Part shown: in pieces, positions 5,538 through 61,220 of the stretch
Numbering within the stretch: position 1 is the stretch's first letter
Layout: each line of letters begins with the position of its first letter
NCBI GenBank assembly: GCA_964621395.1
Contig: CAZULS010000001.1
Coordinates: 245,106 to 309,105, forward strand
Direction: 5' to 3'
Source: an uncultured Candidatus Saccharibacteria bacterium
GTDB lineage: Bacteria; Patescibacteriota; Minisyncoccia; Phycocordibacterales; JACNGX01
Length of the DNA stretch: 64,000 nucleotides
Translations under genes and position numbers: made by a program
Notes under the pieces: generated by a model
The model's input: the letters and a program-made list of their open reading frames with translations, nothing else
What the model was told of the DNA's origin: nothing
Database searches by the model: none

Positions 5538-5636
5538 GTTGTGTTTGATAGAGTAAAGGAATATGAAAGCAAAAACGCGGCGACCAAAGGTCGCCACGTT
5601 TTTTTTGGGCAGTGTGCTCTCTAGAACAAATATGTT

Positions 5637-5712
5637 GTCATCCCGCACTTGATGCGGGATCTAAACGTTAAGAAACAATTCTCTCGAGATCCCGCATCAA
5701 GTGCGGGATGAC
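5637..5712. repeat. Hairpin-unit pair (gtcatcccgcacttgatgcgggatc ... gatcccgcatcaagtgcgggatgac), family 1 short form
   Basis: Two 25-nt palindromic units in inverted orientation, separated by 25 nt. The same unit recurs at more than 20 intergenic sites, for example 15504..15529, 15561..15586 and 61088..61220. Confidence 0.7.
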
Positions 5713-5800
5713 AAGATGTGTCTTTTTACCGTTAACTTTTTTTAATCTCCTAATATTTTAATTTTCTTTTTTGTTTGTTCTTCTTTTTTATTCTCCTACT

Positions 5801-10455: not shown

Positions 10456-10784
10456 GGTATTCTTTTTAGGGTTGTGCAAGACTGCTCTTTTTCTACCAAT
10501 TTTGAGATAAAAAAGCAAGGGGAGTGAACGAAGACTTACTCACTTTATTGTCATCCCGCACTTGATGCGGGATCTTCTCGAATAGTACAAAAAACTTTAG
10601 ATTCCCGTTCAAGCTGGGAATGACAGGGGAATAAATGATGTGCAACAAAGTCAGATTCGTATGTTCGTACACATTCGTACTTCGTACCCATTTCAGGAAA
10701 TAAGCCCTATAAGCTATCAGCTAAAAGCTACAAGCCAGATATGATATAATATCAGTGTTTTAATCATTACATTATTAAACCTGT

Positions 10785-11795: not shown

Positions 11796-11939
11796 AAATA
11801 CGAAAAACGAAATATGAAATATGTATAAGCGGCGCGGGGCTTTCGCCCCGCGCCGCTTTTCTTTTCGTACCTTCTTTCTTTGTCATTCCGGACTTGATCC
11901 GGAATCTTCGACAGGTTGTTTTCGAAGGCTGTTTGGGGA

Positions 11940-12070
11940 GATCCCGCATCACCAGAGCTCCACTTTCACCAATATCATTTGCAGTAAAACATCTTTTGTC
12001 CCCTCTCCTACCGTCTACGATTTCTTAATATATTCAGTGAAAGTCGAGCTCGGCAGGAGTGCGGGATGAC
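11940..12070. repeat. MITE-like element, family 1
   Basis: Same termini and core as 1748..1877. Preceded by a solo hairpin unit gtcattccggacttgatccggaatc (11882..11906). Confidence 0.7.
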
Positions 12071-12107
12071 ACCATATCTTTACTTATACAAAAAAGTATC
12101 GTAAGAT

Positions 12108-12284: not shown

Positions 12285-12336
12285 ATTCTGTCATTCTGAG
12301 CTCGACTCAGAATCTCCAATATATTTTTTCAGACTA

Positions 12337-12468
12337 GATTCCGCATCACCAGAGCCTCACTTTCACCAATATCATTTGCAGTAAAATATCTTTCATCCCT
12401 TCTCCTACCGTCTACGATATCTTAATGTGTTCAGTGAAAGTGAAGCTCGGCAGGAGTGCGGGATGACA
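12337..12468. repeat. MITE-like element, family 1
   Basis: gattccgcatcaccagagcctcactttcacc...gtgaaagtgaagctcggcaggagtgcgggatgaca. Confidence 0.7.
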
Positions 12469-12514
12469 ATTTCATTTTATGAAGCGGCGCGGCTATGCCG
12501 CGCCGCTTCATATA

Positions 12515-12553
12515 TTAATCTCCTAACATATTAATTTCCTAATCTCCTGACGT
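12515..12553 (+). promoter_or_regulatory. Conserved 5' module (taatctcctaacatattaatttcctaatctcct-N5-ATG)
   Basis: Same about 40-nt sequence immediately 5' of obg, gap (19268..19313), rpiB (20722..20764), ORF 41725 (41683..41724) and, diverged, the csaA-like gene (23555..23620) and rpe. Confidence 0.5.
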
Positions 12554-13516
12554 ATGTCTTTTATCGACGAATACCAGTTTAATGCAAAAGCAGGGAAGGG
12601 CGGCGACGGTGTCGTTCGTTGGTTGCATATGAAAGGAAAAGAATTTGGCGGTCCTGCAGGTGGCGACGGCGGCAAAGGTGGCGACGTGTATATTCGTGGT
12701 GTGCGCGATGTGGCGCTTCTTGCTAAGTATCGCAGTAAGAATGAATTTATCGCTGAACATGGGGAGAGCGGTGGTGGCAAAAAAATGAAAGGAAAAAATG
12801 GAGACGATCTCTATATCGATTTGCCTATCGGTTCGCTCGTCACCAATACCGATACGTATGAGACGTTTGAGATTATGGAAGAAGGAGAGAGTCATTTGGT
12901 TCTTGCCGGAGGTGAGGGTGGTTTGGGCAATGATCGTTTCAAAAGTTCACGAAATATCCGTCCGGAAGAATCCACGCCCGGGCAAGTTGGGCAGGAAGGA
13001 CATTTCTCCGTAGAGCTTCGTCTTATTGCTGATATCGGCTTGGTGGGCATGCCCAATGCCGGAAAGTCGTCGCTCTTGAATGCGCTTACCAAAGCAGAAG
13101 CGAAAATCGGCGCGTATCCTTTCACTACGCTTGAGCCGAATCTCGGCGTGCTCTACGGACGCGTGATTGCCGATATTCCCGGCCTCATCGAAGGTGCGTC
13201 AGAAGGGAAGGGTGTAGGGCACAAATTTCTTCGCCATGTGAGCCGCACACGCATGCTTGTGCATTGTGTCTCGTGTGAACACGAGAATGTGAAAGAAGCG
13301 TATGAAACGATTCGCGCGGAGCTCGAAGCGCACGGTGACGGGCTCTCAGAAAAGAGTGAAATGATCCTTCTCACGAAGACCGATATGTGCACGTCGGAAG
13401 AGGTGCAAGCAAAAAAAGAAGCACTTGCGACATACGGCAAACGTGTGGAAGACGTGACCGTCCTTGATGATGACATGGTGAAGCGGATAGGGGAAATCTT
13501 TGTTGGGAATGCCTAA
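12554..13516 (+). CDS. obg: GTPase Obg/CgtA (short form, no C-terminal OCT/TGS domain)
   Basis: 320 aa. N-terminal Gly-rich Obg fold (AGKGGDGVVRW, GGDGGKGGDV). G domain with GMPNAGKSS (G1) and DIPGLIEGA (G3). Confidence 0.85.
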   Translation: MSFIDEYQFNAKAGKGGDGVVRWLHMKGKEFGGPAGGDGGKGGDVYIRGVRDVALLAKYRSKNEFIAEHGESGGGKKMKGKNGDDLYIDLPIGSLVTNTDTYETFEIMEEGESHLVLAGGEGGLGNDRFKSSRNIRPEESTPGQVGQEGHFSVELRLIADIGLVGMPNAGKSSLLNALTKAEAKIGAYPFTTLEPNLGVLYGRVIADIPGLIEGASEGKGVGHKFLRHVSRTRMLVHCVSCEHENVKEAYETIRAELEAHGDGLSEKSEMILLTKTDMCTSEEVQAKKEALATYGKRVEDVTVLDDDMVKRIGEIFVGNA

Positions 13517-15388: not shown

Positions 15389-15734
15389 GAGTCGTACCTT
15401 TTGCTTTGATTTTAGTTAATGTACTTTCCACAGCAAGCATAACACATGATTCGTTAGAATGAAACACGCACGGCACGGTAGATATGGGATATACAAATAA
15501 GCTGTCATTCCGGCCTGCGAGCCGGAATCTAGGATTGTGTCTCTGGTGGTGGTTTGCGAAGATCCCGCATCAAGTGCGGGATGACAGGAACCTTTTGTTT
15601 TTAGAAGAAGTGCGCGGCGCCGTAGGCGCCGCGCACTTCTCGCAACAGGGTGCTCACAACTCGAAACTCACAAAAATGACAATATAAGCTATTTCTGCTA
15701 TTCTTAATCCGTAATTCTTAATTCCCTTGGCCGT

Positions 15735-19102: not shown

Positions 19103-19313
19103 GAGGTCATCCTGTTTTTTCGGTTAAAAGGTGTTACGTCCTCTCCTTTTGTACCATAAACATGTGGAAAATCAAAATGTGGTATACTGTGTATAAGAGC
19201 TCTTCGGGTTTCTGGTACTGTATGATAAGATTCCGAATCAAGTCCGGAATGACACTCATTGGCTTTTAGGTATTTTTAATTTCCTAATCATTAACCTCCT
19301 AATCTCCTGTACT

Positions 19314-20354
19314 ATGTCTTCACGTATTGCCATCAATGGTTTTGGTCGTATCGGCCGGGCATTTTTCAAGGCCGCGTTTTCTCGCCCTGAGATTGATATT
19401 GTCGCTGTCAACGATCTGGGTGATCCCGATAATCTTGCCTATCTTCTCACATACGACACCGCATATGGGAGAAGTCGGTTTGATGTGCAGGTAGAGGGTG
19501 ACACACTTGTCGTTTCGGGTGGTGAAGAAGAAAAAGAAATTGCGCTCATCTCTGAGCGAGATCCTGCGGCATTGCCGTGGGATGATATGGACATTGATAT
19601 CGTGGTTGAGTGTACGGGCGTGTTTGCCGGCTATGAAAAATCAAAACCACACCTCGAGGCCGGGGCCAAGCGCGTGGTGATTTCCGCTCCGGTAAAAGAT
19701 ACTCCTGAAGAGGCGGGAGTGAGCGGCGCGACGATTATTCCGGGAGTCAATGACGAAGAGTTGGAAACGGCACAAATCTCATCCAATGCATCATGCACAA
19801 CCAATGCGGCAACACCGCTTATCGAAATTCTCCATGAAGGGCTCGGTATTGAAAAAGCGGCGCTCAATACGGTGCATGGATACACCTCAACACAGCGCAC
19901 GGTGGATCTTCCGAATCCAAAAGATTTCAGACGCGGGCGTGCGGCGGCGCAGAACATCATTCCCACAAGCACCGGAGCGGCAATTGCCACAACAAAGGTG
20001 GTGCCGGCTCTCGAAGGAGCCTTCGATGGCTTGGCAATGCGCGTGCCGGTGATTGTTGGCTCTATTGTCGATATCACATTTGTCGCATCGCGGGAGACGA
20101 GTGTGGAAGAAGTGAATGATATTCTCCGAACAGCGGCGGGAGAGGAACGCTGGAAGAGCACACTTTCAACCGTGGAAGAGCCGATTGTGTCGTCTGATAT
20201 CATTGGCTGCCCGTATGCATCGCTTGCTGATTTGTCACTCACCCAGGTGATTGGCGGTACGCTCGTGAAAGTGCTTGCGTGGTATGATAACGAAACCGGC
20301 TATGCCAATGCGCTGACCGAACACGTCATTGCAAGCGCACAATACATAGAATAA
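19314..20354 (+). CDS. gap: Glyceraldehyde-3-phosphate dehydrogenase
   Basis: 346 aa; NGFGRIGR Rossmann motif; active site SNASCTTN. Preceded by the conserved 5' module. Confidence 0.9.
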   Translation: MSSRIAINGFGRIGRAFFKAAFSRPEIDIVAVNDLGDPDNLAYLLTYDTAYGRSRFDVQVEGDTLVVSGGEEEKEIALISERDPAALPWDDMDIDIVVECTGVFAGYEKSKPHLEAGAKRVVISAPVKDTPEEAGVSGATIIPGVNDEELETAQISSNASCTTNAATPLIEILHEGLGIEKAALNTVHGYTSTQRTVDLPNPKDFRRGRAAAQNIIPTSTGAAIATTKVVPALEGAFDGLAMRVPVIVGSIVDITFVASRETSVEEVNDILRTAAGEERWKSTLSTVEEPIVSSDIIGCPYASLADLSLTQVIGGTLVKVLAWYDNETGYANALTEHVIASAQYIE

Positions 20355-20619: not shown

Positions 20620-20764
20620 TAGGAGACGACGAAGATTCCGCATCAAGTGCGGAATGACAATGAAAGTGGATAATGTACTAAAAGTCAGATTCGTATGTTC
20701 GTACACGTTCGTAGTTCGTAACCTTTGTAATCTCCTAACATTTAATTTCCTAATCTCCTCAATT

Positions 20765-21232
20765 ATGCTTATTCACATCGCATCAGATCACGCAGGACTT
20801 GCGCTCAAAGAACATCTTCAGGGCGTGCTTGAGTCTCTCGGGCATGAGGTTGTTGATTATGGTCCGAACGAGTATGACAAAGACGATGACTATCCTGATT
20901 TTGTCCGTCCGGCGGCGGAAGCGGTGGGGGAGGCATATTGCTCAGGACAAACAGACGTGCGCGGTATTGTCATTGGCGGCTCCGGGCAAGGCGAAGCGGT
21001 TGTGGCTAATCGCGTGAAGGGTGTTCGTGCAGCAGTGTGGTATGGTGGCGATATGCACTTGGTTATGCTTTCTCGAGAGCATAATGATGCAAATGTTCTG
21101 TCGCTCGGAGCGCGATTCATGGATAAAGGGATTGCCGAAGAAGTGGTGAAGATGTGGCTTGATACACCGTTTTCCAATGACGAGCGCCATATTCGGAGGA
21201 TTAAAAAAATCGATAAAACGAATTACGAATAA
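20765..21232 (+). CDS. rpiB: Ribose-5-phosphate isomerase B
   Basis: Internal ATG MLIHIASDHAG (RpiB/LacAB family) of ORF 20654..21232. The upstream part of the track ORF is translated repeat sequence. Confidence 0.85.
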   Translation: MLIHIASDHAGLALKEHLQGVLESLGHEVVDYGPNEYDKDDDYPDFVRPAAEAVGEAYCSGQTDVRGIVIGGSGQGEAVVANRVKGVRAAVWYGGDMHLVMLSREHNDANVLSLGARFMDKGIAEEVVKMWLDTPFSNDERHIRRIKKIDKTNYE

Positions 21233-21598
21233 GTACGAATATACGAACGGTACAAATCTCTACAAATATGAATTTACGTTTAAAAGCTCATTATTTGTCA
21301 TTCTGAACTCCTGCCGAGCCCCACTTTCACTGGACACATCAAGAAATCATGAACGATAGAAGAAAAAATGAAAGATATGTTACTGCAAATGATATTGGTG
21401 AAAGTGGGGCTCTGGTGATTCAGAATCTAGAAAACGATGGAGATTCCGCATCACCAAGCACCATTTTCACTAAAGTGAAAAAAGTGCTCGGCACAGAGTG
21501 CGGAATGACAATGAAAGTGGATGATGTGCTAAAAGTCAGATTCGTATGTTCGTACTCATTCGTACTTCGTACCCGATACCATTCTTAATTCTCTTCTC

Positions 21599-22297
21599 AT
21601 GCTTGAAATTATCCCTGCCATTATTCCGGAAAGCGTAGAGGATCTCTCCGAAAAGCTTTCTCGTGTTGCCGGTCTTGCATCTGTTGTGCAAATTGATTTT
21701 GTCGATGGTGTGTTTGTGCCCGATGCCGCTCCTTCGTGGCCGTTTCATGACACAAAAGAAGAAGGGGTGTTCAGCACGCTCGGTACAGAGGAAGAAGGTT
21801 TGCCTTTCTGGGACACTTTTTTCTTTGAAGCTGACCTCATGGTAAAAGAGCCCGAGCATATCATCGACGATATTATCGGTGCCGGATTTTCTCGCGTTAT
21901 TCTCCATGCCGGGAGCTCCGGGAAGATTGCCGAAATCTTCGATACACTGCGATCGTATGACATTGAGACAGGTCTTGCTCTTTCTGTCGGCGACGATATA
22001 GAACAATATGCATCGCTTCTTGAAAAAGCGGATGTCATTCAAGTGATGGGCATTGAGCACATCGGCAGGCAAGGAGAAAGGCTGTCTCCGGACGCACTTC
22101 TTCTCTTATCCACTTTGCGGGGGCAGTATCCCGAGCGTATAATAAGTGTCGATGGAGGCGTGAATGTGGAGAACGCGCCCATTCTCGTTGGCGAGGGAGC
22201 CGACCGTCTTGTCTCAGGTTCCGCACTTTTCGGTAGTGATGATATTGCCGGAGTGCTGGCAAAATTTTATTCTCTGGAAGAACCTGTCTCAAGTTAA
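21599..22297 (+). CDS. rpe: Ribulose-phosphate 3-epimerase-like TIM-barrel protein
   Basis: 232 aa. QIDFVDGVFVP resembles the Rpe HLDVMDGHFVPN metal site. The last 19 nt including the stop lie inside a family-2 MITE. Confidence 0.6.
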   Translation: MLEIIPAIIPESVEDLSEKLSRVAGLASVVQIDFVDGVFVPDAAPSWPFHDTKEEGVFSTLGTEEEGLPFWDTFFFEADLMVKEPEHIIDDIIGAGFSRVILHAGSSGKIAEIFDTLRSYDIETGLALSVGDDIEQYASLLEKADVIQVMGIEHIGRQGERLSPDALLLLSTLRGQYPERIISVDGGVNVENAPILVGEGADRLVSGSALFGSDDIAGVLAKFYSLEEPVSS

Positions 22298-22473
22298 ATG
22301 GCTTATTCTCGTTCCGAGCATTCGAGCGAGTCGAAGTCTCGGAGACTGAAGCGTACTGTCTGTACGATGAAGTTGAGAGACAAGACGCAGCCGGATGCTC
22401 GGTGCGAGAATTGCCAAGCGCACACGAAGTGAGGTGAATATTATGTGGGCGTTTTAACGTGAGACAGGTTCTC
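22279..22473. repeat. MITE-like element, family 2 (about 195 nt)
   Basis: aagaacctgtctcaagttaaatggcttattctcg...gagaattgccaagcg...ttaacgtgagacaggttctcag. Copies at 29928..30125, 32835..32938 (short form), 36680..36877, 43062..43259 and 44526..44724. Confidence 0.7.
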
Positions 22474-22493: not shown

Positions 22494-23357
22494 ATGAAAC
22501 ACTTAAGCGATGGCGATGTCCATACAATCATTCAGAAAGCAAATACCATCCGCAGAAGCGTGATTGAAATGCTTCTTGAAGCCGGATCGGGGCACACCGC
22601 CGGACCGCTTGGTATGGCGGATATTTTCGCGCTTCTGTATTTTCATGTCCTTCGACACCGCCCCGATGAGCCGGAGTGGTCAGCACGCGACCGACTGATT
22701 CTTTCCAACGGGCACATTTGTCCGGTGCTCTACGCTGCAATGGCACATGCGGGATATTTTCCGGTATCGGAATTGAAGAGCTTGAGAAAGTTTGGCACAC
22801 GACTCCAGGGACACCCGCATCGTGAATGGCTACCGGGTATTGAAACAAGCTCCGGTCCGCTGGGCTCCGGACTTTCACAAGCAGTCGGGATGGCGCTTGC
22901 TGAGCGCATGGACCGCGGAGTTTCGAGTGATAAATATTTTTATGTCATCCTTGGTGACGGAGAACTTGATGCCGGTCAGGTATGGGAAGCGATGATGCAG
23001 GCAGGGAAGGAACGCCTTTCCAATATTATTGCCATTGTCGACCGCAACAATATCCAAATCGACGGCTTTACCTGGGATGTGATGCCACTTGAGCCGTTGT
23101 TTGAAAAATGGGAGAGCTTTAATTGGCACGTGCAAGAAGTGGACGGACACAATATTGAAGCAATGAATGAAGCGATTGGTGAGGCGCAGTCGGCATATGG
23201 ACAGCCGTCGGTGATTATTGCCCACACGATTCCGGGCAAAGGGGTGCAAGAGTTTGAGCGCGATTTTTCATGGCATGGCAAACCGCCCCGCGCAGAAGAA
23301 GCAAAGCGGGCACTGGAAGAGCTGCGCACATTGGGAGGGAAGATACATTGCGATTAG
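22494..23357 (+). CDS. Transketolase, N-terminal (TPP-binding) subunit
   Basis: 287 aa; GDGE TPP-binding signature (VILGDGELDAGQVWEA). Split-Tkt arrangement with the C-terminal subunit at 24460. Confidence 0.85.
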   Translation: MKHLSDGDVHTIIQKANTIRRSVIEMLLEAGSGHTAGPLGMADIFALLYFHVLRHRPDEPEWSARDRLILSNGHICPVLYAAMAHAGYFPVSELKSLRKFGTRLQGHPHREWLPGIETSSGPLGSGLSQAVGMALAERMDRGVSSDKYFYVILGDGELDAGQVWEAMMQAGKERLSNIIAIVDRNNIQIDGFTWDVMPLEPLFEKWESFNWHVQEVDGHNIEAMNEAIGEAQSAYGQPSVIIAHTIPGKGVQEFERDFSWHGKPPRAEEAKRALEELRTLGGKIHCD

Positions 23358-23620
23358 CAATGAAATGCACAAATCACAAGCATCAAATAACAAATAATAC
23401 TCAAATTCGAAATATCAAAATCTATGAGTTGTCATTCCGGGCTTGACCCGGAATCCAGGAAACACACGAAGATTCCGGATCAAGTCCGGAATGACAATGA
23501 AAGTGGACAATGTGCCAAAAGCTAGATTCGTATGTCCGTACAAATTCGTAGTTCGTAACCTTTTATTCTCCTTATTTACTAACATACTTATCTCCTAACG
23601 TGTGATTTATAATTCTATAT

Positions 23621-29927: not shown

Positions 29928-30125
29928 TAGAACTCATCTCATGTTAAACCGCTGGAAACAACACTTTTCACTTCGTTCATATGCTTGGCAATTCTCGCAC
30001 CACATATTCGGCTGCACCTTGTCTCTCAACCGCACCGCACGAACAGTGCGGCACGGTCTCCGAGACATCGGCTCGCTCGAATATTCGGCACGAGAATAAG
30101 CCATTTAATATGAGATGAGTTCTAG
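29928..30125. repeat. MITE-like element, family 2, inserted between the pilN-like and pilO-like genes
   Basis: tagaactcatctcatgttaaa...ccatttaatatgagatgagttctag. Its terminal ATGAGTTCTAG supplies the ATG (30115) of the downstream gene. Confidence 0.7.
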
Positions 30126-31119: not shown

Positions 31120-32835
31120 ATGGCTTTTCTTGATTATCTCTCACAAAAAAATATTATTGATCAACGCGCGGTGAAAGACGTGCAGAAGCGTGTATTTCAG
31201 GGGGGAGAAAGATTTGAAGAGGTACTTGCTTCTCATGGTGTTGAACCAAATCAGCTCCTTGCGTTTAGAAGTGAATATTCCAGTATTCCTGTGCGAGATC
31301 TTAAGGAAAAAGAGATTTCTTTTAAGTCACTTGAATACGCTCCGGAAGAATCAGCACTTCATTACCGCTTCCTTCCTCTTGGTATTGCGAACGATGTCCT
31401 CGAGGTTGGTATTGTTGATCCCGATAATATCGGTGCTCGTGATGCAGTACAGTTTATCGCCAATAAACTTGATGTGCCATTTAAGTTTTTTCTTATTTCG
31501 GAAGAAGATTTTATTGAGAATGCAAAGAAATACAAAGGTCTTTCCGGTGAAGTGAATAAAGCGCTCTCCGAACTTGAGACAGAGCTCGACGATACCGAGC
31601 GAGCAATTGCCAGCGTTGAGCCGGCACAAGATCTTTCCAAAACACGTATCATTGAGGATGCACCGGTGACGAAAATCGTTGCGGTGATTTTGCGTCATGC
31701 TATTGAAGGAAAAGCTTCCGACGTGCATGTAGAACCGCTCGAAGACAAGATACGAGTCCGTTTTCGTGTTGATGGTACCATGTATACAAGCTTGGTTCTT
31801 CCAAAGCAAGTCAATAATGCCGTCGTTGCCCGCATTAAGATTCTTACCGGAAGTATGAAGCTTGATGAGAAACGAAAGCCCCAAGACGGTCGTTTCTCGG
31901 CACATATTGAAGGAAGAAAAGTTGATTTTCGTGTGTCGACCTTCCCTACCTATTACGGTGAGAAAGTGGTGATGCGTATTTTGGATACGGAAAAAGGAGT
32001 CCTCTCCCTGACCGAACTTGGTATGACAGAGACTCAAAAGAAAGTCGTAGAAAAAGCAATTAATCGTCCGTACGGTATTATTCTTCTCACCGGACCAACC
32101 GGATCGGGAAAAACAACAACATTGTATTCAATGTTGAATGAACTTGATAGAAATTCCAACAATGTGGTGTCACTTGAGGATCCGGTGGAGTATAATATGG
32201 AAGGAGTGAGCCAGTCACAAGTGCGACCTGAGATCGGGTATACGTTTGCAGGAGGTTTGCGAAGTATTTTACGTCAGGACCCCGATATTATCATGGTCGG
32301 TGAGATTCGTGATAAAGAAACGGCACAACTCGCGATTCAGGCCGCGCTCACTGGTCACTTGGTGTTTTCAACACTCCATACCAATACGGCGACGGGTGTG
32401 ATTCCACGACTTGTGGATATGGGTGTTGATCCATACCTCATTGCTCCGACCCTCGTTCTGGCGATTGGTCAGCGCTTGTTGCCACGTATATGTCCGGAGG
32501 CGAAAAAAGAACGGCTGTTTGAAGGAGGTATGAAGGAAATGGTTGAGAAACAAATCGAAGATATGCCGGAAGAAAAGAAAGAGCTCTTTCGGGGGGCTAC
32601 TCATGTGTATGAGGCGCAACCGACAGAAGAGTGTCCTTCGGGGACACGCGGGCGTATCGGTATCTTCGAGATGTTTGAAGTCGATGCGGATATTGAGACT
32701 GTTATTGTTTCTAATCCTGTGGAGGAAGATATCTACGCCATTGCACGAAAGAAGGGTATGCTTACGATGAAAGAAGATGCGGTATTGAAGTCGTTTGATG
32801 GGCAAGTCTCTTTCGATGAAATTAGCTTCTTATAA
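31120..32835 (+). CDS. pilB: Type IV pilus assembly ATPase PilB (GspE family)
   Basis: 571 aa; Walker A GPTGSGKTTTLYSML; Asp and His boxes; tetracysteine motif. Confidence 0.9.
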   Translation: MAFLDYLSQKNIIDQRAVKDVQKRVFQGGERFEEVLASHGVEPNQLLAFRSEYSSIPVRDLKEKEISFKSLEYAPEESALHYRFLPLGIANDVLEVGIVDPDNIGARDAVQFIANKLDVPFKFFLISEEDFIENAKKYKGLSGEVNKALSELETELDDTERAIASVEPAQDLSKTRIIEDAPVTKIVAVILRHAIEGKASDVHVEPLEDKIRVRFRVDGTMYTSLVLPKQVNNAVVARIKILTGSMKLDEKRKPQDGRFSAHIEGRKVDFRVSTFPTYYGEKVVMRILDTEKGVLSLTELGMTETQKKVVEKAINRPYGIILLTGPTGSGKTTTLYSMLNELDRNSNNVVSLEDPVEYNMEGVSQSQVRPEIGYTFAGGLRSILRQDPDIIMVGEIRDKETAQLAIQAALTGHLVFSTLHTNTATGVIPRLVDMGVDPYLIAPTLVLAIGQRLLPRICPEAKKERLFEGGMKEMVEKQIEDMPEEKKELFRGATHVYEAQPTEECPSGTRGRIGIFEMFEVDADIETVIVSNPVEEDIYAIARKKGMLTMKEDAVLKSFDGQVSFDEISFL

Positions 32836-32938
32836 GAACCAGTTTCAGAAAAACGGCTTGTTCTTACGCCCAAACAGCGAGTGCGTAGCTCCGAAATGAG
32901 ATCATCTCATTTTACAAGGTTTTCAGTGAGACTGGTTC
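32835..32938. repeat. MITE-like element, family 2 short form (about 104 nt)
   Basis: agaaccagtttcagaaaaacggcttgttcttacgcc...cagtgagactggttc, between pilB and the receiver gene. Confidence 0.6.
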
Positions 32939-32957
32939 AAGGTATAATACTTTGTGT

Positions 32958-34087: not shown

Positions 34088-34912
34088 ATGATAACTCTTG
34101 CATATATCCTCGTTTTTGTATTCGGCGCAATCATAGGGAGCTTTCTCAATGTGCTTATTTTGCGTCATGGTACCGGTCGCTCCTTCGTTTCTGACCGTTC
34201 AGCGTGTTGGAGTTGTGGGAAAACTCTCGGGTGGTATGAGCTTGTGCCAATTGTGAGTTATGTCGTTTTGCGTGGGAAGTGTTCCGCATGTAAGACGCGT
34301 ATTTCCCTCCAATATCCGATTGTTGAGTTTCTCACAGGAGCGCTTTTTGTGCTCGGTACATGGAGTATTATTGATATACTGTTTCTCCCTCTGTGGGGAA
34401 TTGTTTCCTTGGCGGTGCTCCTTGCCCTCATCATATCGCTTTCTGTCATGATCACATTCTACGATATTCGCCACACCATTATTCCCAATATGTGGGTCTA
34501 TGTGTTCGCCGCTACCACTCTTCTCTATACGGCAGTCTTTCATATGGCTGCATACGGCACTCTCGCAGAGTGGTCGGTGTGGGACATGGCAGCCGGACCA
34601 ATCCTCTCATTGCCATTTGTTGCTCTTTGGCTCTTTTCCAAGGGAAAGGTAATGGGTCTGGGAGACGCAAAGCTCGTCCTTGGTATCGGCTGGCTTCTTG
34701 GACTCATGGGCGGACTCTCGGCGCTCATCCTTGGATTTTGGTGTGGAGCAATTACAGGACTCATACTCATGGGTATGCACAGGGTAAAAGGATTGTTCGG
34801 TATACAGAAACGGTTTACAATGAAGAGTGAAATTCCTTTCGGTCCGTTTCTTCTCCTTGGTATGTATATTGTTTTCTTTTTTCACATTCAAGCACTCTAT
34901 CTCTTTATTTAA
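34088..34912 (+). CDS. pilD: Prepilin peptidase (A24 family, PilD)
   Basis: 274 aa; N-terminal CxxC...CxxC zinc motif (CWSCGKT...CSACKT); multi-TM with catalytic Asp pair. Confidence 0.8.
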   Translation: MITLAYILVFVFGAIIGSFLNVLILRHGTGRSFVSDRSACWSCGKTLGWYELVPIVSYVVLRGKCSACKTRISLQYPIVEFLTGALFVLGTWSIIDILFLPLWGIVSLAVLLALIISLSVMITFYDIRHTIIPNMWVYVFAATTLLYTAVFHMAAYGTLAEWSVWDMAAGPILSLPFVALWLFSKGKVMGLGDAKLVLGIGWLLGLMGGLSALILGFWCGAITGLILMGMHRVKGLFGIQKRFTMKSEIPFGPFLLLGMYIVFFFHIQALYLFI

Positions 34913-36648: not shown

Positions 36649-36679
36649 GTATACATATATCGTATGACGTATCATCTTT

Positions 36680-36877
36680 CTAGAACCAGTCTCACTGAAA
36701 ATGGCTTGTTCTCACGCCCAAACAGCGAGCGAGCCGACGTCGCGGAGACCGTGCCGCACTGCCGTGCGGTGCGGTTGAGCGACAAGGCGCAGCCGCCACG
36801 TGGGCGTGGGAACTGCCAAGCGCAGCTCTTGAATATGTTTCCATTATTTTTCAATGTTTTCAGTGAGACTGGTTCTA
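36680..36877. repeat. MITE-like element, family 2
   Basis: ctagaaccagtctcactgaaaatggcttgttctcacgcc...gggaactgccaagcg...cagtgagactggttcta. It overlaps the 5' part of track ORF 36664 and contains the only in-frame ATG (36835) for the downstream pilin-like gene. Confidence 0.7.
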
Positions 36878-41437: not shown

Positions 41438-41487
41438 TTAAGATGTTGTCATTCCGGCCCCCGAGCCGGAATCCAAAAAATCACGAA

Positions 41488-41618
41488 GATTCCGCATCAC
41501 CAGAGCCCTACTTTCACCAGTATCATTTGCAGCAAAACATTTTTCATTCCTTCTTCTACCGTCTACGATTTCTTAATGTATCTAGTGAAAGTGAGGCTCG
41601 GCAAGAGTACGGAATGAC
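41488..41618. repeat. MITE-like element, family 1
   Basis: gattccgcatcaccagagccctactttcacc...agtgaaagtgaggctcggcaagagtacggaatgaca, followed by the TTCGTA array and the 5' module. Confidence 0.7.
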
Positions 41619-41724
41619 AATAGAAGTGGATAATGTACTAAAGGTCAGATTCGTATGTTCGTACCGATTCGTAGTTCGTAACCTTTTTATTCTCCTAACC
41701 TTTAATTTCCTAATCTCCTGATGT

Positions 41725-42330
41725 ATGGAAGGCCCCTTCATTGATCTTGAATACGTGTTTTACCAAATATATTCATTTGTATTTGGTATTCCTTCTGCAA
41801 CATCGACCGAAAACGCAACGTCCACGGGTCTATTATCGACTATCACCTCTTTTGACCCAAACCCGACATTTATCATTGCAAAAAATGTGATATCGCTTGT
41901 CATATTACTGCTGATTGCGGGCATTGTGTATGTGCTTGTGCGTCTCTGGGAAGTACAAAAAGAAGAAGAGGCGCAATTTGTCTTCGCTGAGCCTGAACAC
42001 GGACATGGAGAAATTAAGAACGAGCAATGGGAGCTCATTGAAGAGCACATCTCGTCAGAGAATACTTCGGATTGGCGTGTGGCAATCCTTGAGGCAGATA
42101 ATATGCTTGAAGACATGCTGGTGCGCATGGGCTACGACGGTGAGAGCATTGCCGATCGCTTGCGTGCGGTAGAACCAAGCGACTTTACTCATATCCAAAG
42201 TGCATGGGAGGCGCATAGAGTGCGTAATCAGATTGCGCATGAAGGAGTGAATTTTGTCGTTACTCAACGTGAAGCCCGCAGAGTGATTGAGCTGTATCGA
42301 AAAGTGTTTGAGGAATTCCACTATATTTAG
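41725..42330 (+). CDS. Hypothetical membrane-anchored protein with HEPN-like R-x4-H motif
   Basis: 201 aa; one TM (ISLVILLLIAGIVYVLV); C-terminal AWEAHRVRNQIAHEG. Confidence 0.35.
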   Translation: MEGPFIDLEYVFYQIYSFVFGIPSATSTENATSTGLLSTITSFDPNPTFIIAKNVISLVILLLIAGIVYVLVRLWEVQKEEEAQFVFAEPEHGHGEIKNEQWELIEEHISSENTSDWRVAILEADNMLEDMLVRMGYDGESIADRLRAVEPSDFTHIQSAWEAHRVRNQIAHEGVNFVVTQREARRVIELYRKVFEEFHYI

Positions 42331-42657
42331 GAACTAGAATAAAGAATGAAGAATTATGCCTAGCCCGTGCCGAGCCACGGTCGGCCTAGGGAATAAAGAA
42401 TAAAAGGTGCGGCTCACGCCGCACCTTTTATGTATCCCACTTGTCATTTCGTACCCAAACTCTGTCATTCCGGGCTTGACCCGGAATCTCAAAAACAATC
42501 CCACACCTCTCAACACTTCAGAAAATAAAAAAAGCCCGCGGCTTTTGCCAAGGCTCCGCGGGGCACTCGTGCGGCTTGCGTAATAAAAGAGGATATGGTA
42601 CTATCGTGTATACGAAGCCGAGAACGGCTTTTTCATTTGAAATATATGGTATTCCAT

Positions 42658-42728
42658 AGGGGGGTAGAGAAGTAGTATCTCGGGAGGCTCATAACCTCCA
42701 GACCTAGGTGCAATTCCTAGCCCCCCTA
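42658..42728 (+). ncRNA. tRNA-like cloverleaf, anticodon CAT, non-canonical D/T loops (possible pseudo-tRNA or att remnant)
   Basis: Hand fold: 7-bp acceptor (AGGGGGG/CCCCCCT), U8, 3-bp D stem, 5-bp anticodon stem ggagg/cctcc with loop cUCAUAa (U33, A37), 4-nt variable loop, 5-bp T stem ctagg/cctag with loop tGcaatt (G at position 55), discriminator A then CC. Confidence 0.3.
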
Positions 42729-43040
42729 CCTGTACACCAAAAAGACACGACAAGCGTGTCTTTTTGGTGTATACAGGAGGGAGGGATGAGAATGCATTTA
42801 TGCATTCTCATTAGGAATTGCAAGCCGCAGCCATATCGGAGCAACTTGTTGCGACGATGGCGAGGCCGGGCAGGAGCCACACGCACTTTTCCGAGCTTTT
42901 GCGAAGGAAAAGGGCGATGTGAGCTGCGCCAATTCCTAGCCCCCCTACACCCGAATACAAAAACGGCACAAATGTGCCGTTTTTGTGTTTTAGGGTACAA
43001 ATGTAAATTGCGCCAATTGCAAGCCGAAAAAAGTTGAGAA
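42700..43040. repeat. Diverged tandem duplication of a (tRNA-3'-end)-(long hairpin)-(aattgcaagccg) module
   Basis: aattcctagcccccctac at 42712 and 42925. Hairpins caccaaaaagacacg-acaag-cgtgtctttttggtg (42735-42769) and acaaaaacggcac-aaat-gtgccgtttttgt (42950-42979). aattgcaagccg at 42815 and 43015. Confidence 0.5.
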
Positions 43041-44365: not shown

Positions 44366-44524
44366 ATGTCACAGGATAGACTCATTAAATTGGCTTGTGC
44401 GGACTGTAAGCGAATCAATTATTGGTCCCGCAAGAACAAAAAGAAAGTTGAGCGCAAGATTGAGCTCGACAAGTATTGTAAGTGGTGCAAGAAGCACACA
44501 ACACATAAAGAGACGAAGAAGTAA
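44366..44524 (+). CDS. rpmG: 50S ribosomal protein L33
   Basis: 52-aa ORF below the track cut-off: [53 protein letters not shown]33 Cys4 zinc ribbon (C..C...C..C) with the KNK and HKE context. Confidence 0.7.
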
Positions 44525-45520: not shown

Positions 45521-45748
45521 CAGAAAATCAAAAGACAAAAAACAATAGTCAAATACCAAATAAAAAGGAAATATCAAACACAAAAACACAAAAGCGGCGC
45601 GTAGCGTCGCTTTTTGATACACGGCATTATTTGTCATTCCCAGCTTGACTGGGAATCTTCGCTGTTTTGTTTTTAGAGGTTATTCGAGAAGATCCCGCAT
45701 CAAGTGCGGGATGACAGGATATGTGTGTTCCGTGCTATACTGTCCACT

Positions 45749-50831: not shown

Positions 50832-50881
50832 ATTTGAGATAGGTTCAGAATCCGAGTACCATATCTCAGATAAGAAACAAT

Positions 50882-51586
50882 ATGACTAAAGAACAACACT
50901 TTCTTCCTGAACACGCACAAGGGCAATTTCATTGCCCACATTGCGGTGTTTATGCAAAACAGCGATGGTCGCACTTAAGTGCAGTGGGTGACGTGCATAC
51001 CACCAAATGGGGTGGCGGCTCTGTTAAGAATGCCTCAAGTATTCTCGGAACTACTCTTACTAACGGCAATCTCACAGATGATTGGTCCCTCTCTGTTTGC
51101 GAGCACTGTAATGGATTATCTATATGGCATAAACGTCGAATGATTTATCCAGAAAAGATTATTGTTGAGGAGCCCAATGCAGATTTGTCGGGAGAGATTC
51201 AAAAGGACTACCTGGAAGCCGCGAATGTACTTGCCAATTCACCACGCTCAGCAGCAGCGATTCTACGGCTTGCTCTCCAAAAACTTTGTAAACAGCTGGG
51301 CGAGAAAGGAGAAAACATAAACGATGATATTGGTGCACTTGTAAAGAAAGGGCTTAATCCTGCGATCCAAAAATCTCTCGATGCGCTTCGTATCACTGGG
51401 AATAACGCTGTTCATCCAGGGGAACTCGACATTACAGAAGAACCAGGGCGGGTCATTAAGCTTTTTGGTCTTCTGAATTTTATTGCAGAAAAAATGATTA
51501 CCGAACCGAAGGAAATTGACTCATTCTACGAAGGATTACCAGATGGTGCGAAACAAGCGGTAGAAAAGCGTGATCAAGACAAATAA
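50882..51586 (+). CDS. Zinc-ribbon + putative HEPN/DUF4145-like protein
   Basis: 234 aa; N-terminal Cys4 (CPHCG...CEHCNG); C-terminal alpha-helical region with AILRLALQKL and LRITGNNAVHPGE (R...GN..H). First gene 3' of tRNA-Gln. Confidence 0.35.
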   Translation: MTKEQHFLPEHAQGQFHCPHCGVYAKQRWSHLSAVGDVHTTKWGGGSVKNASSILGTTLTNGNLTDDWSLSVCEHCNGLSIWHKRRMIYPEKIIVEEPNADLSGEIQKDYLEAANVLANSPRSAAAILRLALQKLCKQLGEKGENINDDIGALVKKGLNPAIQKSLDALRITGNNAVHPGELDITEEPGRVIKLFGLLNFIAEKMITEPKEIDSFYEGLPDGAKQAVEKRDQDK

Positions 51587-51695
51587 CGGATCCCAACTTT
51601 TTACTGGTTTAAAGTAAAAGAAGTAGAGAAAGAAATAATCAAAATGAAACAAAGTCTCATTTTGAGCGAAAAATATATGGCACTAGATTTTTTGT

Positions 51696-52076
51696 ATGAA
51701 AATAAGAAAAGAAAACATATTAATTCGAGCGATAGGGTTTCTACTTTCTCTTGTTTGGTTTGGTATAAGTTTTATCAAAATGTTATTTTCAATGCTTAAG
51801 GAAAAAATACAAAAAAGAAAGAAAATGACACTAGAAGAGACTGATGAGTTTTTAAATAAAGAAATAAAACGTGTCATTAAACATCTCGTCGAATCTTTTG
51901 AAAGAGGCGAAGTGGATGAAGATCAGCTTCTTGGTGAGCGCAGGATCGTCATTGCTATTGTCTTCGACAGGGAAAGATTGCTCCCTGACGGTTTTACCAA
52001 AGAAGAAGCAATGGAAAGATTGACACCTTCGTGGCGTGAGGAAGTGAGGTATCACTACAGGCTTCGCCATAAATAA
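51696..52076 (+). CDS. Small membrane protein (126 aa)
   Basis: N-terminal TM (AIGFLLSLVWFGISFIKMLF), charged C-terminus. Its stop lies 2 nt before the Nudix start. Confidence 0.3.
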   Translation: MKIRKENILIRAIGFLLSLVWFGISFIKMLFSMLKEKIQKRKKMTLEETDEFLNKEIKRVIKHLVESFERGEVDEDQLLGERRIVIAIVFDRERLLPDGFTKEEAMERLTPSWREEVRYHYRLRHK

Positions 52077-52078
52077 CT

Positions 52079-52663
52079 ATGGACATCCAAAAACCAAAAT
52101 CAGCACAGCCAATTCCTGAACACGCCAAGTGTGTGTTTAAGGGCGTGATGTTTGACGTGTATCAATGGGAGCAGGAATTATATAACGGAACAACGACGAC
52201 GTTTGAGAAATTGAAGCGTGCTGATACGGTGATGGTGTATCCAGTACTTCCCGATGGCAAAATTCTTTTAGCCGAACAAGAACAGCCCGGTAAAGAACCC
52301 TTTATAAGTGCTGCGGGTGGTCGTGTTGACGAGGGGGAAGAAGTGTTTGACGCGGCGAAGCGTGAACTTTTGGAGGAGACGGGATATGAGGCAGATGAAT
52401 GGACTCTTTGGAAAGCAGTACAGCCGGGAAGTAAAATTGATTGGGCGGTCTATTCTTTCATTGCTAAGGGACTACGGAAGGTTGCTGATTTGAATCTCGA
52501 TGGTGGCGAGAAGATTACTCCCAAGCCGGTGACATTCGAAGAGTTTCTTGAGATGGGCACGAATGACCGGTTCGGTGAAAAGGAAATTGTTCCCGAACTT
52601 CTCCTGGCGAAAATTGATTCGGAAAAAGAGAGGGAAATAAGAGCATTATTTTCCGCAGATTAA
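52079..52663 (+). CDS. Nudix hydrolase
   Basis: Nudix box GGRVDEGEEVFDAAKRELLEETG (G-x5-E-x7-REUxEExGU). Confidence 0.7.
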   Translation: MDIQKPKSAQPIPEHAKCVFKGVMFDVYQWEQELYNGTTTTFEKLKRADTVMVYPVLPDGKILLAEQEQPGKEPFISAAGGRVDEGEEVFDAAKRELLEETGYEADEWTLWKAVQPGSKIDWAVYSFIAKGLRKVADLNLDGGEKITPKPVTFEEFLEMGTNDRFGEKEIVPELLLAKIDSEKEREIRALFSAD

Positions 52664-52698
52664 GGTCTCACCTTAATCTAATCCTTAATCAAGATTTG

Positions 52699-52740
52699 AA
52701 GCGTATCAAACGCTTGCTTTTATCGTATCACAATGATACG
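52699..52740 (+). promoter_or_regulatory. Two palindromic operator-like sites sharing CGTATCA half-sites
   Basis: aagcgtatcaaacgctt (52699-52717) and cgtatcacaatgatacg (52724-52740), about 100 nt 5' of the AbiEi-like gene. Confidence 0.45.
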
Positions 52741-52838
52741 AAAAATGACCTGAGATGATACGATATTTCTTGCTTTTGAGGGGAAACGGGTTGTTGTTTG
52801 ACACTGTATTTCACATATGATACACTATTGTCATACTT

Positions 52839-53456
52839 ATGAAAAGCAAAGAAAATTTGTTATATCAGTTGAATCTCTTGCCTCATTTTACCAAAGACAC
52901 GGTATATCGTCTTGGAGAGCAGTTGGGGCTTCGGAAAAGCACGGTTGACACATATATCAGCCGGTTTTTGAAGCGCAAGGAAATAATACGATTGAAAAAA
53001 GGATTGTACATATCGTCGGTGTTTTATTCGACACATGTAAGCGATATGTCGTATCTGTTTTGTCTTGCCAATATTCTCCGAACGCCTTCATATGTAAGTT
53101 CATGGACAGCGCTTCAGTATTATAATCTTACAACCGAAGTGATACACCCGATTATATCAACAACGACAAAAGTGACACGGACGCAGGAAACGAAGGTGGG
53201 GACGTTTTCGTATCAGTCAATTCGGAACGATCTTTTTTCAGATTATGTGCGTGTGAACGGGGCATTTGATTTTTTCATTGCGACACCGTCGAAGGCATTG
53301 TTCGATCTCTTGTACTTCAGGACACGGCAATTTCGCGGCGTGAACCGCGGGGATATTGATCGCATAGTTGAAGAACTGCGGATTGATATTGACGAAATAA
53401 ACGATACCGAGCGAAGCAAGTTTTACACGTATATCAAAGAATACATTCATGAGTAA
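52839..53456 (+). CDS. AbiEi-like antitoxin (type IV TA / abortive infection, N-terminal wHTH)
   Basis: 205 aa. 8-nt overlap with the downstream NTase-fold gene. Size and architecture match the AbiEi_4-type partner of AbiEii; family assignment is from motif memory only. Confidence 0.45.
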   Translation: MKSKENLLYQLNLLPHFTKDTVYRLGEQLGLRKSTVDTYISRFLKRKEIIRLKKGLYISSVFYSTHVSDMSYLFCLANILRTPSYVSSWTALQYYNLTTEVIHPIISTTTKVTRTQETKVGTFSYQSIRNDLFSDYVRVNGAFDFFIATPSKALFDLLYFRTRQFRGVNRGDIDRIVEELRIDIDEINDTERSKFYTYIKEYIHE

Positions 53457-54732
53457 TCATATTATTGCCATGCTGAAAAAACGAATCGAGGAGCTTGATA
53501 TGTATGACACACTGGATGCCGAGACTCGTCGCAATGTGCTCAAAGAAGAGCTGCAGTTTTACGTGCTTGATTTCATCTATCATCATCCCGAATATCATAG
53601 ATGGATTATGTACGGCGGTTCCGCATTGCGTATTCTGCACGGATTGAATCGCATGTCGGTGGATTTGGATTTTGAAGTGTCGCGCGCGGTAACGAATGAT
53701 TTTTTGCAGACACTTAAGAATGAGATTGAAACTCACTTCTCACAGACGTACGGGACCGATACTGATTTTCTCACAGCCAAGGTCGTTGGTGGCAGAGGGC
53801 TGAAACTCAAGTTTCATATTGGTGAAATGCTCGGTATTGACCACCCTTCGAAACAGGTTCATGTAAAGATTGACCTCAATCGCTTTGTCGCGCCAAAAAC
53901 GGTGACCGAACGAATACCGGTGTCTCGCAATCAGCTTTCTTTTGTGATTCTGACGTACAATATGTCGGCGCTTATGGCAAGTAAAATCGCCGCCATTGTA
54001 TTGCGCGGTGCACGCATAGTCGGCAAAAACGTGTATGAAGAGAAAGGGAGAGATATATACGACCTTCTGTGGTATATGGAGAAAAAAATTGTACCCGATT
54101 TTGATTATTTGGTTGCCAAAGAGATTGATATTCGCAACCTTCGTGCGCTTTTTGACACGCTGACGCTTCGTATGAACACGGTAAGCACGGAGAATCTCAA
54201 GCAGGATCTTACTCCTTTGTTTGAGCATAAAACATTTATCGATAATTGGATGACGCATTGGCTGGAACAGTATTTTCATCTTCTTGAAGAATATCATATT
54301 CGGACGGTAACCGATGTGAAGCGTATAGGAGTATACCGGGATTTCTCGTCCGATAATTTCTACTTTACGTATACCTATGATACAGAGGAAAAAGATCCGA
54401 TACGAGTGATATACGCGATGAGCGATTATTGGATTGACTTTGCGCCTCATGCACTGCCGAATGATGTTGATGAAAAGATAGCATCACTGATTGGGTTTGG
54501 TGGCAACGGCATGACAAGCCATCCTTCTTCTGAGGAAATGATAAAGAAGTATACAACGTTGTTTTTTAAGAAGACGGAAGAGTATTTTAAGAAAACACAT
54601 AACGTAGTGGTGGGAGATATGCTGGAGACGAAACTGATACGCATGACGGCGGACAATCTCAATCGCAATACAGAGATTGTTCTTACGATGCCGACGCTTT
54701 TGTCATGCGAACTCGATGATTTGTTGAAGTAG
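53449..54732 (+). CDS. AbiEii/AbiGii-family nucleotidyltransferase toxin-like protein (DUF1814-like)
   Basis: 427 aa; N-terminal NTase signature YGGSALRILHGLNRMSVDLDFEV (GG[ST]-x9-R-x-S-x-D-x-D); long C-terminal extension. Confidence 0.55.
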   Translation: MSNHIIAMLKKRIEELDMYDTLDAETRRNVLKEELQFYVLDFIYHHPEYHRWIMYGGSALRILHGLNRMSVDLDFEVSRAVTNDFLQTLKNEIETHFSQTYGTDTDFLTAKVVGGRGLKLKFHIGEMLGIDHPSKQVHVKIDLNRFVAPKTVTERIPVSRNQLSFVILTYNMSALMASKIAAIVLRGARIVGKNVYEEKGRDIYDLLWYMEKKIVPDFDYLVAKEIDIRNLRALFDTLTLRMNTVSTENLKQDLTPLFEHKTFIDNWMTHWLEQYFHLLEEYHIRTVTDVKRIGVYRDFSSDNFYFTYTYDTEEKDPIRVIYAMSDYWIDFAPHALPNDVDEKIASLIGFGGNGMTSHPSSEEMIKKYTTLFFKKTEEYFKKTHNVVVGDMLETKLIRMTADNLNRNTEIVLTMPTLLSCELDDLLK

Positions 54733-54741
54733 TTATCATCT

Positions 54742-56910: not shown

Positions 56911-56919
56911 TGGACATGT

Positions 56920-57459
56920 ATGATTGCGTTTGAAACACATGCGGGGAAGGAGATTAATCTTGATGCCGTGGAAGCGGTGATGCTCGGGAAACATGCCGAG
57001 CCGCGCTTTTTGGACGTGGTGACGGGGCGGGTTGAGAGTGAGCCGAGTGTGACGCGCATGGAGATTCCGGTGATATCCAAGGAGCGATTTGAAAAAGAAA
57101 TGCGGTCGTTTATTGATATGATGGCGGTATGGGAGAATGATGAATCCGATGCGTGTATAATTGAGAAACTAACAGCGCTTCTTTCAGGAAAAGAGGTGTA
57201 TGATAAGGCGATGCAGATACTTCAAACGGACGAAGCATGGATGATTGGCTGGCGCGAATGGATTTCCACAAGCGTGTGGGAAGAAATGCGCGCGTGGCTG
57301 CTTTCCGCCGATAACGGTATCGTTGAGGTTGCAACATTCAATTGCTCATGCGCGCTCTGTCACGACATGGCGCAAGGCATGAAAGGCAATGAACGTATTC
57401 GTGTGGATTGGAATTTGGATAATATGAATGAGGATGGAAATGATAAGCTAGAAAAATGA
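56920..57459 (+). CDS. Hypothetical protein (179 aa) coupled to the AEP-helicase gene
   Basis: Starts 10 nt after the helicase stop; same GC-rich composition. Acidic, with a Cys cluster CSCALCH near the C-terminus. No known family recognised. Confidence 0.35.
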   Translation: MIAFETHAGKEINLDAVEAVMLGKHAEPRFLDVVTGRVESEPSVTRMEIPVISKERFEKEMRSFIDMMAVWENDESDACIIEKLTALLSGKEVYDKAMQILQTDEAWMIGWREWISTSVWEEMRAWLLSADNGIVEVATFNCSCALCHDMAQGMKGNERIRVDWNLDNMNEDGNDKLEK

Positions 57460-61075: not shown

Positions 61076-61087
61076 ACCTTTTTCTCC

Positions 61088-61220
61088 GTCATCCCGCACT
61101 TGATGCGGGATCTCCAATATATTTTCACTAAAAACTGTTTGAAAACCAAAGTTGAGCTTTGATATGAATACCAAAGCTCAACTTTGGTTTTCTGGATCCC
61201 GCATCAAGTGCGGGATGACA
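61088..61220. repeat. Hairpin-unit pair element (family 1 short form) with an internal 16-bp hairpin
   Basis: gtcatcccgcacttgatgcgggatc ... accaaagttgagctttg-N14-caaagctcaactttggt ... ggatcccgcatcaagtgcgggatgaca. Confidence 0.65.

Follow-up and report, generated by a model that had tools for sequence, protein, structure and literature searches.

The window, i.e., the whole 64-kb stretch of DNA that was analysed, contains genes of glycolysis and the pentose-phosphate pathway, a type IV pilus operon, tRNAs and a small defence island. Relatives of its Rpe protein are annotated as Parcubacteria, Yonathbacteria or Paceibacterota MAGs. The + strand carries most of the genes and has a positive GC skew throughout. 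Inserted among these genes is a family of repeats, consisting of five full copies (194-197 bp, AGAAC...GTTCT) and a sixth with an internal deletion, here numbered c1 to c6. All six are confined to 22.3-44.7 kb of the window. The copies and the protein-coding genes whose ends they bear on are the following.

21599-22297, + strand, rpe (ribulose-phosphate 3-epimerase), 232 aa, Pfam PF00834; P0001 is 100% identical
22279-22472, + strand, c1, full copy of 194 nt in the last rpe codons; nhmmer E=5e-53; site empty in L030, L033 and L041
22473-22497, + strand, remains of the ancestral C-terminal codons of rpe, ..C AGA AGA ACG GAT TCA GAT ATA TGA = RRTDSDI*, now untranslated
22494-23357, + strand, transketolase N-terminal subunit gene (tkt), from Pfam
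29929-30123, - strand, c2, full copy of 195 nt, the sole inverted copy; site empty in L030 and L033
30133-30669, + strand, pilO-like gene (Pfam PilO), ancestral start MPYIIFTIALL...; the start called in L030 aligns to 30133
32835-32939, + strand, c3, 105 nt, internally deleted, c4-like, both ends matching the profile; site empty in L030 and L033
36664-37401, + strand, PilX-like minor prepilin gene, a 245-aa ORF with c4 in its leader and an internal ATG at 36835; the protein on record, P0121, has 245 aa
36682-36876, + strand, c4, full copy of 195 nt (65 codons) in the PilX-like prepilin gene; site empty in L036 and L038
43063-43258, + strand, c5, full copy of 196 nt, 9 nt upstream of tRNA-Met; site empty in L036
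44527-44723, + strand, c6, full copy of 197 nt between the rpmG stop (44522-44524) and tRNA-Asp (44740); site empty in L036

The copies were recovered by repeat finding, profile search and motif scans of the window. The initial annotation had described six copies with shared termini and an internal GAGAAYTGCCAAGC segment. All six are present, with refined coordinates that differ by at most 2 nt, and motif scans and profile search confirmed both the termini and the internal segment. Scanning the window gave 14 matches to the terminal motif AGAACYNRTCTCA against 1.1 expected, and five matches to the core motif GAGCGAGYCGNNGTCNCGGAGAC against 0 expected. The nhmmer E-values of the five full copies range from 1e-52 to 1e-59, and the profile search detected no further copies or fragments within the window. 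Alignment of the copies defined the terminal inverted repeats, AGAACnnnTCTCA and TGAGAnnnGTTCT, which are perfect 13-bp repeats in 5/5 full copies and give the element its ends, AGAAC...GTTCT. In the same alignment c3 is closest to c4; ~90 nt of its core is missing and both ends are kept. Copy-to-copy identity in the window is 67-80%.

The element appears in the alignment as a non-coding sequence. Stop counts across the copies gave no conserved ORF; no frame is open in all copies, and frame +0 has 1-3 stops in the full copies other than c4. Promoter and terminator scans inside the element found nothing consistent, and there is no T-tract after the stem. No sequence is conserved across copies outside the element ends, and thus the element has no promoter of its own there. 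An Rfam scan of the window at the gathering threshold returned tRNAs only, and a permissive scan of c6 returned only noise. Several other identities were considered and rejected, i.e., a peptide-coding gene (only the +0 frame of c4 is free of stops), an intrinsic terminator (no T-tract), a retron ncRNA (no RT gene) and integron attC sites, whose RYYYAAC/GTTRRRY pattern is not matched by the termini and which would adjoin cassettes, whereas core genes are found here.

We also scanned public contig collections with the core motif. Among 25 hits in metagenome contigs the sole true copy is that on L016, a 3.4-kb contig, where it lies upstream of uvrB. Four hits in genome contigs were judged to be chance matches in high-GC genomes, and the viral contigs gave 0 hits. 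Seven copies are therefore known in all, six in the window and one on L016. The L016 copy is 79-80% identical to c2 and c5, as close as the window copies are to each other.

Syntenic loci were available from four relatives (L030/L031, L033, L041 and L036/L038) at 79-89% nucleotide identity. All of the insertion sites (6/6) are empty in this DNA, and the ~50.6 kb of sequence from the relatives contains zero copies of the element. Presence/absence polymorphism at orthologous sites is shown for all six copies, which are lineage-specific insertions. The empty sites support the earlier description of a family of inserted mobile repeats. They also define the insertion at base-pair resolution at two positions, as exact removal of AGAAC...GTTCT restores ORFs of orthologue length in rpe (234 aa) and in the PilX-like pilin gene (180 aa). 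Because coding sequence fixes the register at these two sites, the element is AGAAC...GTTCT and the target-site duplication, calculated from exact excision, is 0 bp. At the remaining four, window and empty site are collinear with an offset of no more than 0-2 nt. A search for target-site duplications, which the initial annotation had left to be defined, found no direct repeats flanking any copy. We did not find a fixed target motif in the left flanks of the seven copies, which end in GGA, ACT, ATA, TCT, GCT, ATC and CCT; CT is the end of just 4/7.

The initial annotation named these repeats MITEs, and part of that label holds. A classical MITE would be an internally deleted derivative of an IS with a DDE transposase, moved by cut-and-paste via its terminal inverted repeats. 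The perfect 13-bp inverted repeats, the small size (<~500 bp), the multiple copies and the lack of an ORF all agree with this, as does the existence of an internally deleted derivative (c3). The clustering of six copies within 22 kb of the window suggests local hopping. Target-site duplication is a defining trait of classical transposase-driven MITEs, however, and here the label fails, with 0 bp duplicated at the two coding sites and no direct repeats at any copy. In addition, the variable positions of the inverted repeats covary and the whole interior is paired (see below), which decay after DDE insertion would not yield. There is no parent IS in the window, and Pfam searches of 56 ORFs found no transposase or recombinase genes in the 64 kb. 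We therefore regard a classical MITE as improbable.

At the rpe-tkt site the left junction of c1 falls inside rpe codon 227 (GA|A). The element supplies the third base of this codon followed by E228-P-V-S-S and the stop, and the insertion has changed the tail of the protein from the ancestral SLDRRTDSDI* to SLEEPVSS*. The claim that the last codons and the stop of rpe are element sequence is thus confirmed by the junction and by comparison to orthologues. Eight ancestral codons (DRRTDSDI) were displaced and survive downstream of c1. Deletion of exactly 22279-22472 results in a 234-aa Rpe ending in SLDRRTDSDI*, with its TGA (22495-22497) overlapping the tkt ATG at 22494. The Rpe tails of orthologues are SLEKRTHSDI* (as in P0004) or ...LEERADTHI*. 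In relatives that lack the element the termini differ from that of the window, and the insertion rewrote the C-terminus. The overlap between rpe and tkt is 4 nt (ATGA) in L030, L033 and L041, and is broken in the window by c1. Judging from this ATGA, tkt would formerly have been translationally coupled to rpe.

Further copies are found among the pilus genes. The inverted copy, c2, is separated by 5 nt from the stop of the gene preceding pilO (in the pilN position, with no Pfam match) and by 9 nt from the ancestral ATG of pilO. It had been proposed that the pilO-like gene takes its start codon from this copy, which is not supported. An ATG at 30115 does lie in c2, but the orthologous in-frame start is 30133, outside the element, and use of the inner ATG would merely add MSSSYT to the product. 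The deleted copy, c3, abuts the stop codon of pilB (T2SSE), where TAA is kept either way, and ends 18 nt before the ATG of a response-regulator gene (32958). In the interval 32920-32948, just upstream of the response-regulator gene, the right end of c3 contributes a -35-like TTTTCA that is 17 nt from a flanking TATAAT. Going by the consensus scan alone, it is possible that the insertion created a hybrid -35/-10 promoter.

The copy in the PilX-like minor prepilin gene, c4, was inserted after codon 6, in frame and with no stop in that frame. This places it in the prepilin leader, ahead of the G|F cleavage motif, and the leader is 78 aa if read through the element. The ATG at 36835 had been taken for the only in-frame ATG of this gene, and the pilin for one that had acquired its start from the element. 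Neither is the case. The ATG at 36664 is the orthologous pilin start; it lies 18 nt upstream of c4 and is in frame through the whole element. The gene instead carries a 65-codon in-frame insertion in a cleavable leader. The closest orthologues (P0122-P0125) are 180-181 aa. Deletion of exactly 36682-36876 results in a 180-aa protein starting MTYHLSNNVHNRGFAILF, and P0125 (180 aa) starts MTHHFFNNIHNRGFAILF. A prepilin peptidase gene is located nearby at 34088-34912 (its position is matched by synteny with L030 and L036), and the c4-bearing leader should be cleaved off by the encoded enzyme. The mature pilin would then be unchanged whether translation starts at 36664 or at 36835.

Precise removal restores both of these ORFs to the length and sequence of their orthologues, as would be expected of an intron-like element that is removed from RNA. 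A closing stem of ~21-24 bp (described below) sets the two junctions side by side, and cleavage and ligation there would restore the rpe and pilin frames. Any clean DNA insertion predicts the same restoration, however. Rfam shows no ribozyme or intron signature, the lengths vary (194-197 nt), c4 is open in frame so that its removal would be needless, and four copies are intergenic, where splicing would be purposeless. We know of no bacterial system of RNA-level palindrome removal and consider this explanation very improbable.

Next to the tRNAs, c6 is wedged between rpmG and tRNA-Asp as was first described, starting 2 nt after the rpmG stop and ending 16 nt before the tRNA. The five window copies outside coding sequence end 9-21 nt before the start of the next gene or tRNA. 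The element is in sense orientation relative to its flanking genes in 6/7 copies (the window and L016), the exception being c2, which is antisense in the pilus operon. The top strand of the element is on the + strand in 5/6 window copies. The view that these insertions are actively remodelling gene ends holds for two of the six copies; the other four are clean intergenic insertions.

Two other features were seen beside tRNAs. At 42658-42950 a second copy of the 3′ part of tRNA-Met (..AATTCCTAGCCCCCCTAC) lies ~220 nt downstream of the first, and the sequence that separates the two is GC-rich and structured. The region is conserved in L036 and resembles an att-site duplication such as a small integrated element would leave behind. 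Directly after tRNA-Gln, at 50835-50868, the sequence TGAGATAGGTTCAGAATCC...ATCTCA resembles a right-end/left-end junction of the terminal repeats. It could be a remnant or a chance match, as 1.1 one-mismatch matches are expected in the window. Downstream of tRNA-Gln, 50882-57459 encodes a DUF4145 protein, an AbiEii nucleotidyltransferase toxin and a TOTE-type AEP primase-helicase, and is likely a defence island.

The consensus fold of the element is a nested palindrome or rod. A terminal stem of ~21-24 bp (AGAACnnnTCTCA.../...TGAGAnnnGTTCT) closes an inner hairpin of ~110 nt. The inner hairpin has conserved internal loops (GAGCGAG..GGAGAC / GTTGAG..GCAGCC), a hypervariable yet always paired segment and a small GCCAAGC hairpin. 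It is followed by a loosely structured 3′ bulge of ~40 nt. Covariation was tested on six sequences, i.e., the five full window copies and the L016 copy. Over 70 pairs, 92.8% of cells are paired, compared to 31-43% when the partner is slid by 1-3 columns. Double (both-side) changes are found in 23/70 pairs versus 11.6±2.1 in shuffles, and 0/500 shuffles reach the observed value in any measure. Even within the 13-nt terminal repeat, the three positions that vary do so together with their partners in every case. In DNA palindromes, hairpin-templated correction can also produce compensatory changes without selection.

The two strands differ in stability. Under RNA parameters each of the five full-length window copies folds more stably as its top strand than as the complement, by 10-24 kcal/mol, the structure having been predicted on the top strand. 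Under DNA parameters c5 has -64.7 kcal/mol for the top strand versus -55.4 kcal/mol for the bottom strand, and its ssDNA folding z-scores are -14 (top) and -11 (bottom). There are 37 G·U cells compared to 9 A·C cells, and one G·U pair is invariant; the G·U excess could partly reflect the prediction on the top strand. Given the positive GC skew of the + strand, part of it may also be mutational.

These properties would suit a cis-acting structured RNA that is co-transcribed with the operons, e.g., an RNase III site or stabiliser that punctuates mRNAs and uncouples neighbouring genes, and that was selected by the host after spreading. The sense strand is the more stable one, with its invariant G·U pair and many G·U cells, and conserved internal loops adjoin helices of variable sequence. 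The sense orientation of 6/7 copies and the 9-21 nt spacing of the five non-coding-sequence copies from the next gene or tRNA point the same way, and Correia elements in mRNAs are substrates of RNase III (PMC10969869). The antisense position of c2 within the pilus operon argues against such a role, as does the persistence of c3 though its whole core is lost. There is no Rfam match, and the element has neither a promoter of its own nor a T-tract after the stem. None of the close relatives carries it at any of the six sites, and thus it has no conserved host function. We consider an RNA role unlikely as the primary explanation. As a secondary possibility it is compatible with a mobile hairpin.

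We think it likely, with moderate confidence, that the family is a non-autonomous, non-coding palindromic element of ~195 bp, similar to REPINs and Rickettsia palindromic elements (RPE), that makes a 0-bp target-site duplication, is probably mobilised as a single strand and is not a classical MITE. The heavy compensatory covariation, together with the strand bias, points to a structure-dependent, single-strand mechanism of the REPIN or IS200/IS605 type. Selection would act on the hairpin in single-stranded form, and an enzyme whose gene lies outside the window would recognise it in trans. Such an enzyme would act without staggered cuts; the leading candidate would be an HUH/Y1 enzyme (IS200/IS605- or RAYT-like), or possibly another non-duplicating recombinase. 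Survival would be limited to insertions that spare gene function, and this would be why the copies are found in tiny spacers immediately ahead of the next gene, in the tail of rpe, which is dispensable, and within a prepilin leader without loss of frame.

The divergence among copies bears on the same mechanism. One relative at 89% nucleotide identity lacks the rpe insertion, and thus the divergence of the copies predates their insertion. If so, several compensated lineages of the element would have been active simultaneously, unless the relatives lost copies by precise excision. Either is typical of hairpin elements mobilised as single strands. Insertion of the IS200/IS605 type into ssDNA prefers the orientation of the lagging-strand template. 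The + strand, being G-rich and carrying most of the genes, is probably that template, and the top strand lying on + in 5/6 copies fits weakly with this preference (n = 6).

The window also contains other repeats.

5635-5662, 10548-10575, 11880-11907, 15560-15589, 23429-23456, 42462-42489, 45631-45719 and 61086-61113, examples of a 28-nt REP-like hairpin
11939-12071, 12336-12468, 41487-41619, 1746-1878; 20646-20767, 21497-21618, 23483-23604 and 41606-41727, repeats of ~120-135 nt (D1, D2)
12513-12556, 19273-19316, 20724-20767, 23561-23604 and 41684-41727, a 44-nt CU-rich module

There are at least 15 occurrences of the 28-nt hairpin, as TGTCATCCCGCACTTGATGCGGGATCT or as variants in which stem changes are compensated, and both orientations are represented. 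Inverted doublets are among them, e.g., 5625-5662 / 5687-5724, and the Logan contig L039, from the same organism, ends near two of these repeats. They look REPIN-like and hint at a RAYT-type enzyme elsewhere in the genome. D1 and D2 are two more repeat families, which are intergenic and partly mutually inverted. They are probably the "MITE family 1" of the initial annotation. Every copy of the CU-rich module (..TAATTTCCTAATCTCCTG..ATG) ends in ATG, and this ATG is the start of the ORF at 12554 (Obg), 19314 (the GAPDH gene) and 41725 (a 201-aa ORF). The module looks like a common 5′ leader or promoter cassette.

The genomes of Patescibacteria are tiny and tightly packed, and are generally considered repeat-poor. 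A burst of structured elements in one lineage indicates that selfish DNA still invades such genomes, and where it is absorbed. The tolerated sites are spacers of 10-25 nt, a dispensable enzyme tail and a leader peptide that would be cleaved off. The insertions are also a warning for annotation, since the 245-aa "pilin", the truncated-looking tail of Rpe and a possibly over-extended pilO start are products of insertion and not native. The exact reconstructions of the empty sites, with a 0-bp duplication, precise ends and compensated hairpins, are a starting point for a search for the mobilising enzyme.

No relevant work on MITEs in Patescibacteria came up in a literature search, and comparison was made to systems in other bacteria. 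Correia elements duplicate a TA target. The window element differs from them in duplicating nothing, and we saw no shared sequence. Correia (NEMIS) and ERIC elements are small repeats with terminal inverted repeats that are co-transcribed with their neighbours, and their RNA hairpins alter processing by RNase III or RNase E (PMC10969869); a likeness of the window element in RNA processing is by analogy. PATEs, which are derived from IS200/IS605 elements, are similar to it in having no target-site duplication and precise boundaries; their hairpins are recognised strand-specifically as single strands, as would be the case here. They have separate subterminal hairpins, though, and insert 3′ of a fixed tetra- or pentanucleotide, whereas the ends of the window element pair together and no fixed target motif is evident for it. 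True inverted-repeat ends that pair with each other are unlike both the end hairpins of IS200/IS605 and the REP units of REPINs.

The REPINs are hairpins kept by compensatory changes and form diverse sequence populations within genomes (PMC3116915). Like REPINs, which are mobilised by RAYT (TnpA_REP tyrosine HUH) transposases, the window element is non-autonomous and mostly extragenic, with a long compensated hairpin, a diverse population of copies in one genome and no transposase of its own. In REPIN systems, REP units flank a RAYT gene that is present in a single copy. REPINs are ~70-110 nt and consist of two short REP palindromes, whereas this element is ~195 nt with non-palindromic 13-nt termini and a conserved asymmetric core. 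Its termini are not self-palindromic as REP units are, and no Y1/RAYT domain was found among the ORFs of the window. Two of its copies, unlike REPINs, lie inside coding sequence.

In this last respect the element is closer to the RPE, which are 100-150 bp, occur in a small genome and insert in frame in genes, adding a peptide without destroying the protein (PMC10969869). The c4 copy, 195 nt long, stop-free and in frame in the prepilin leader, is RPE-like in behaviour. Most copies of the window element are intergenic (1-2/6 are intragenic), in contrast to RPE, and its host is a Patescibacterium whereas the RPE host is an alphaproteobacterium. We think it doubtful that the element represents an undescribed class of mobile hairpin, i.e., one that is CPR-specific, duplicates no target, depends on structure, is mobilised as single-stranded DNA or RNA by an enzyme outside RAYT and IS200/IS605 with the loops as its recognition site, and is routinely tolerated in coding sequence. 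No concept is overturned, since RPE already provide examples of in-frame palindromic insertions and REPINs of compensated hairpin elements. The element adds a new family to a known kind of selfish palindromic repeat in bacteria, and is a clean case of structure-selected insertion without target-site duplication in an ultra-small genome.
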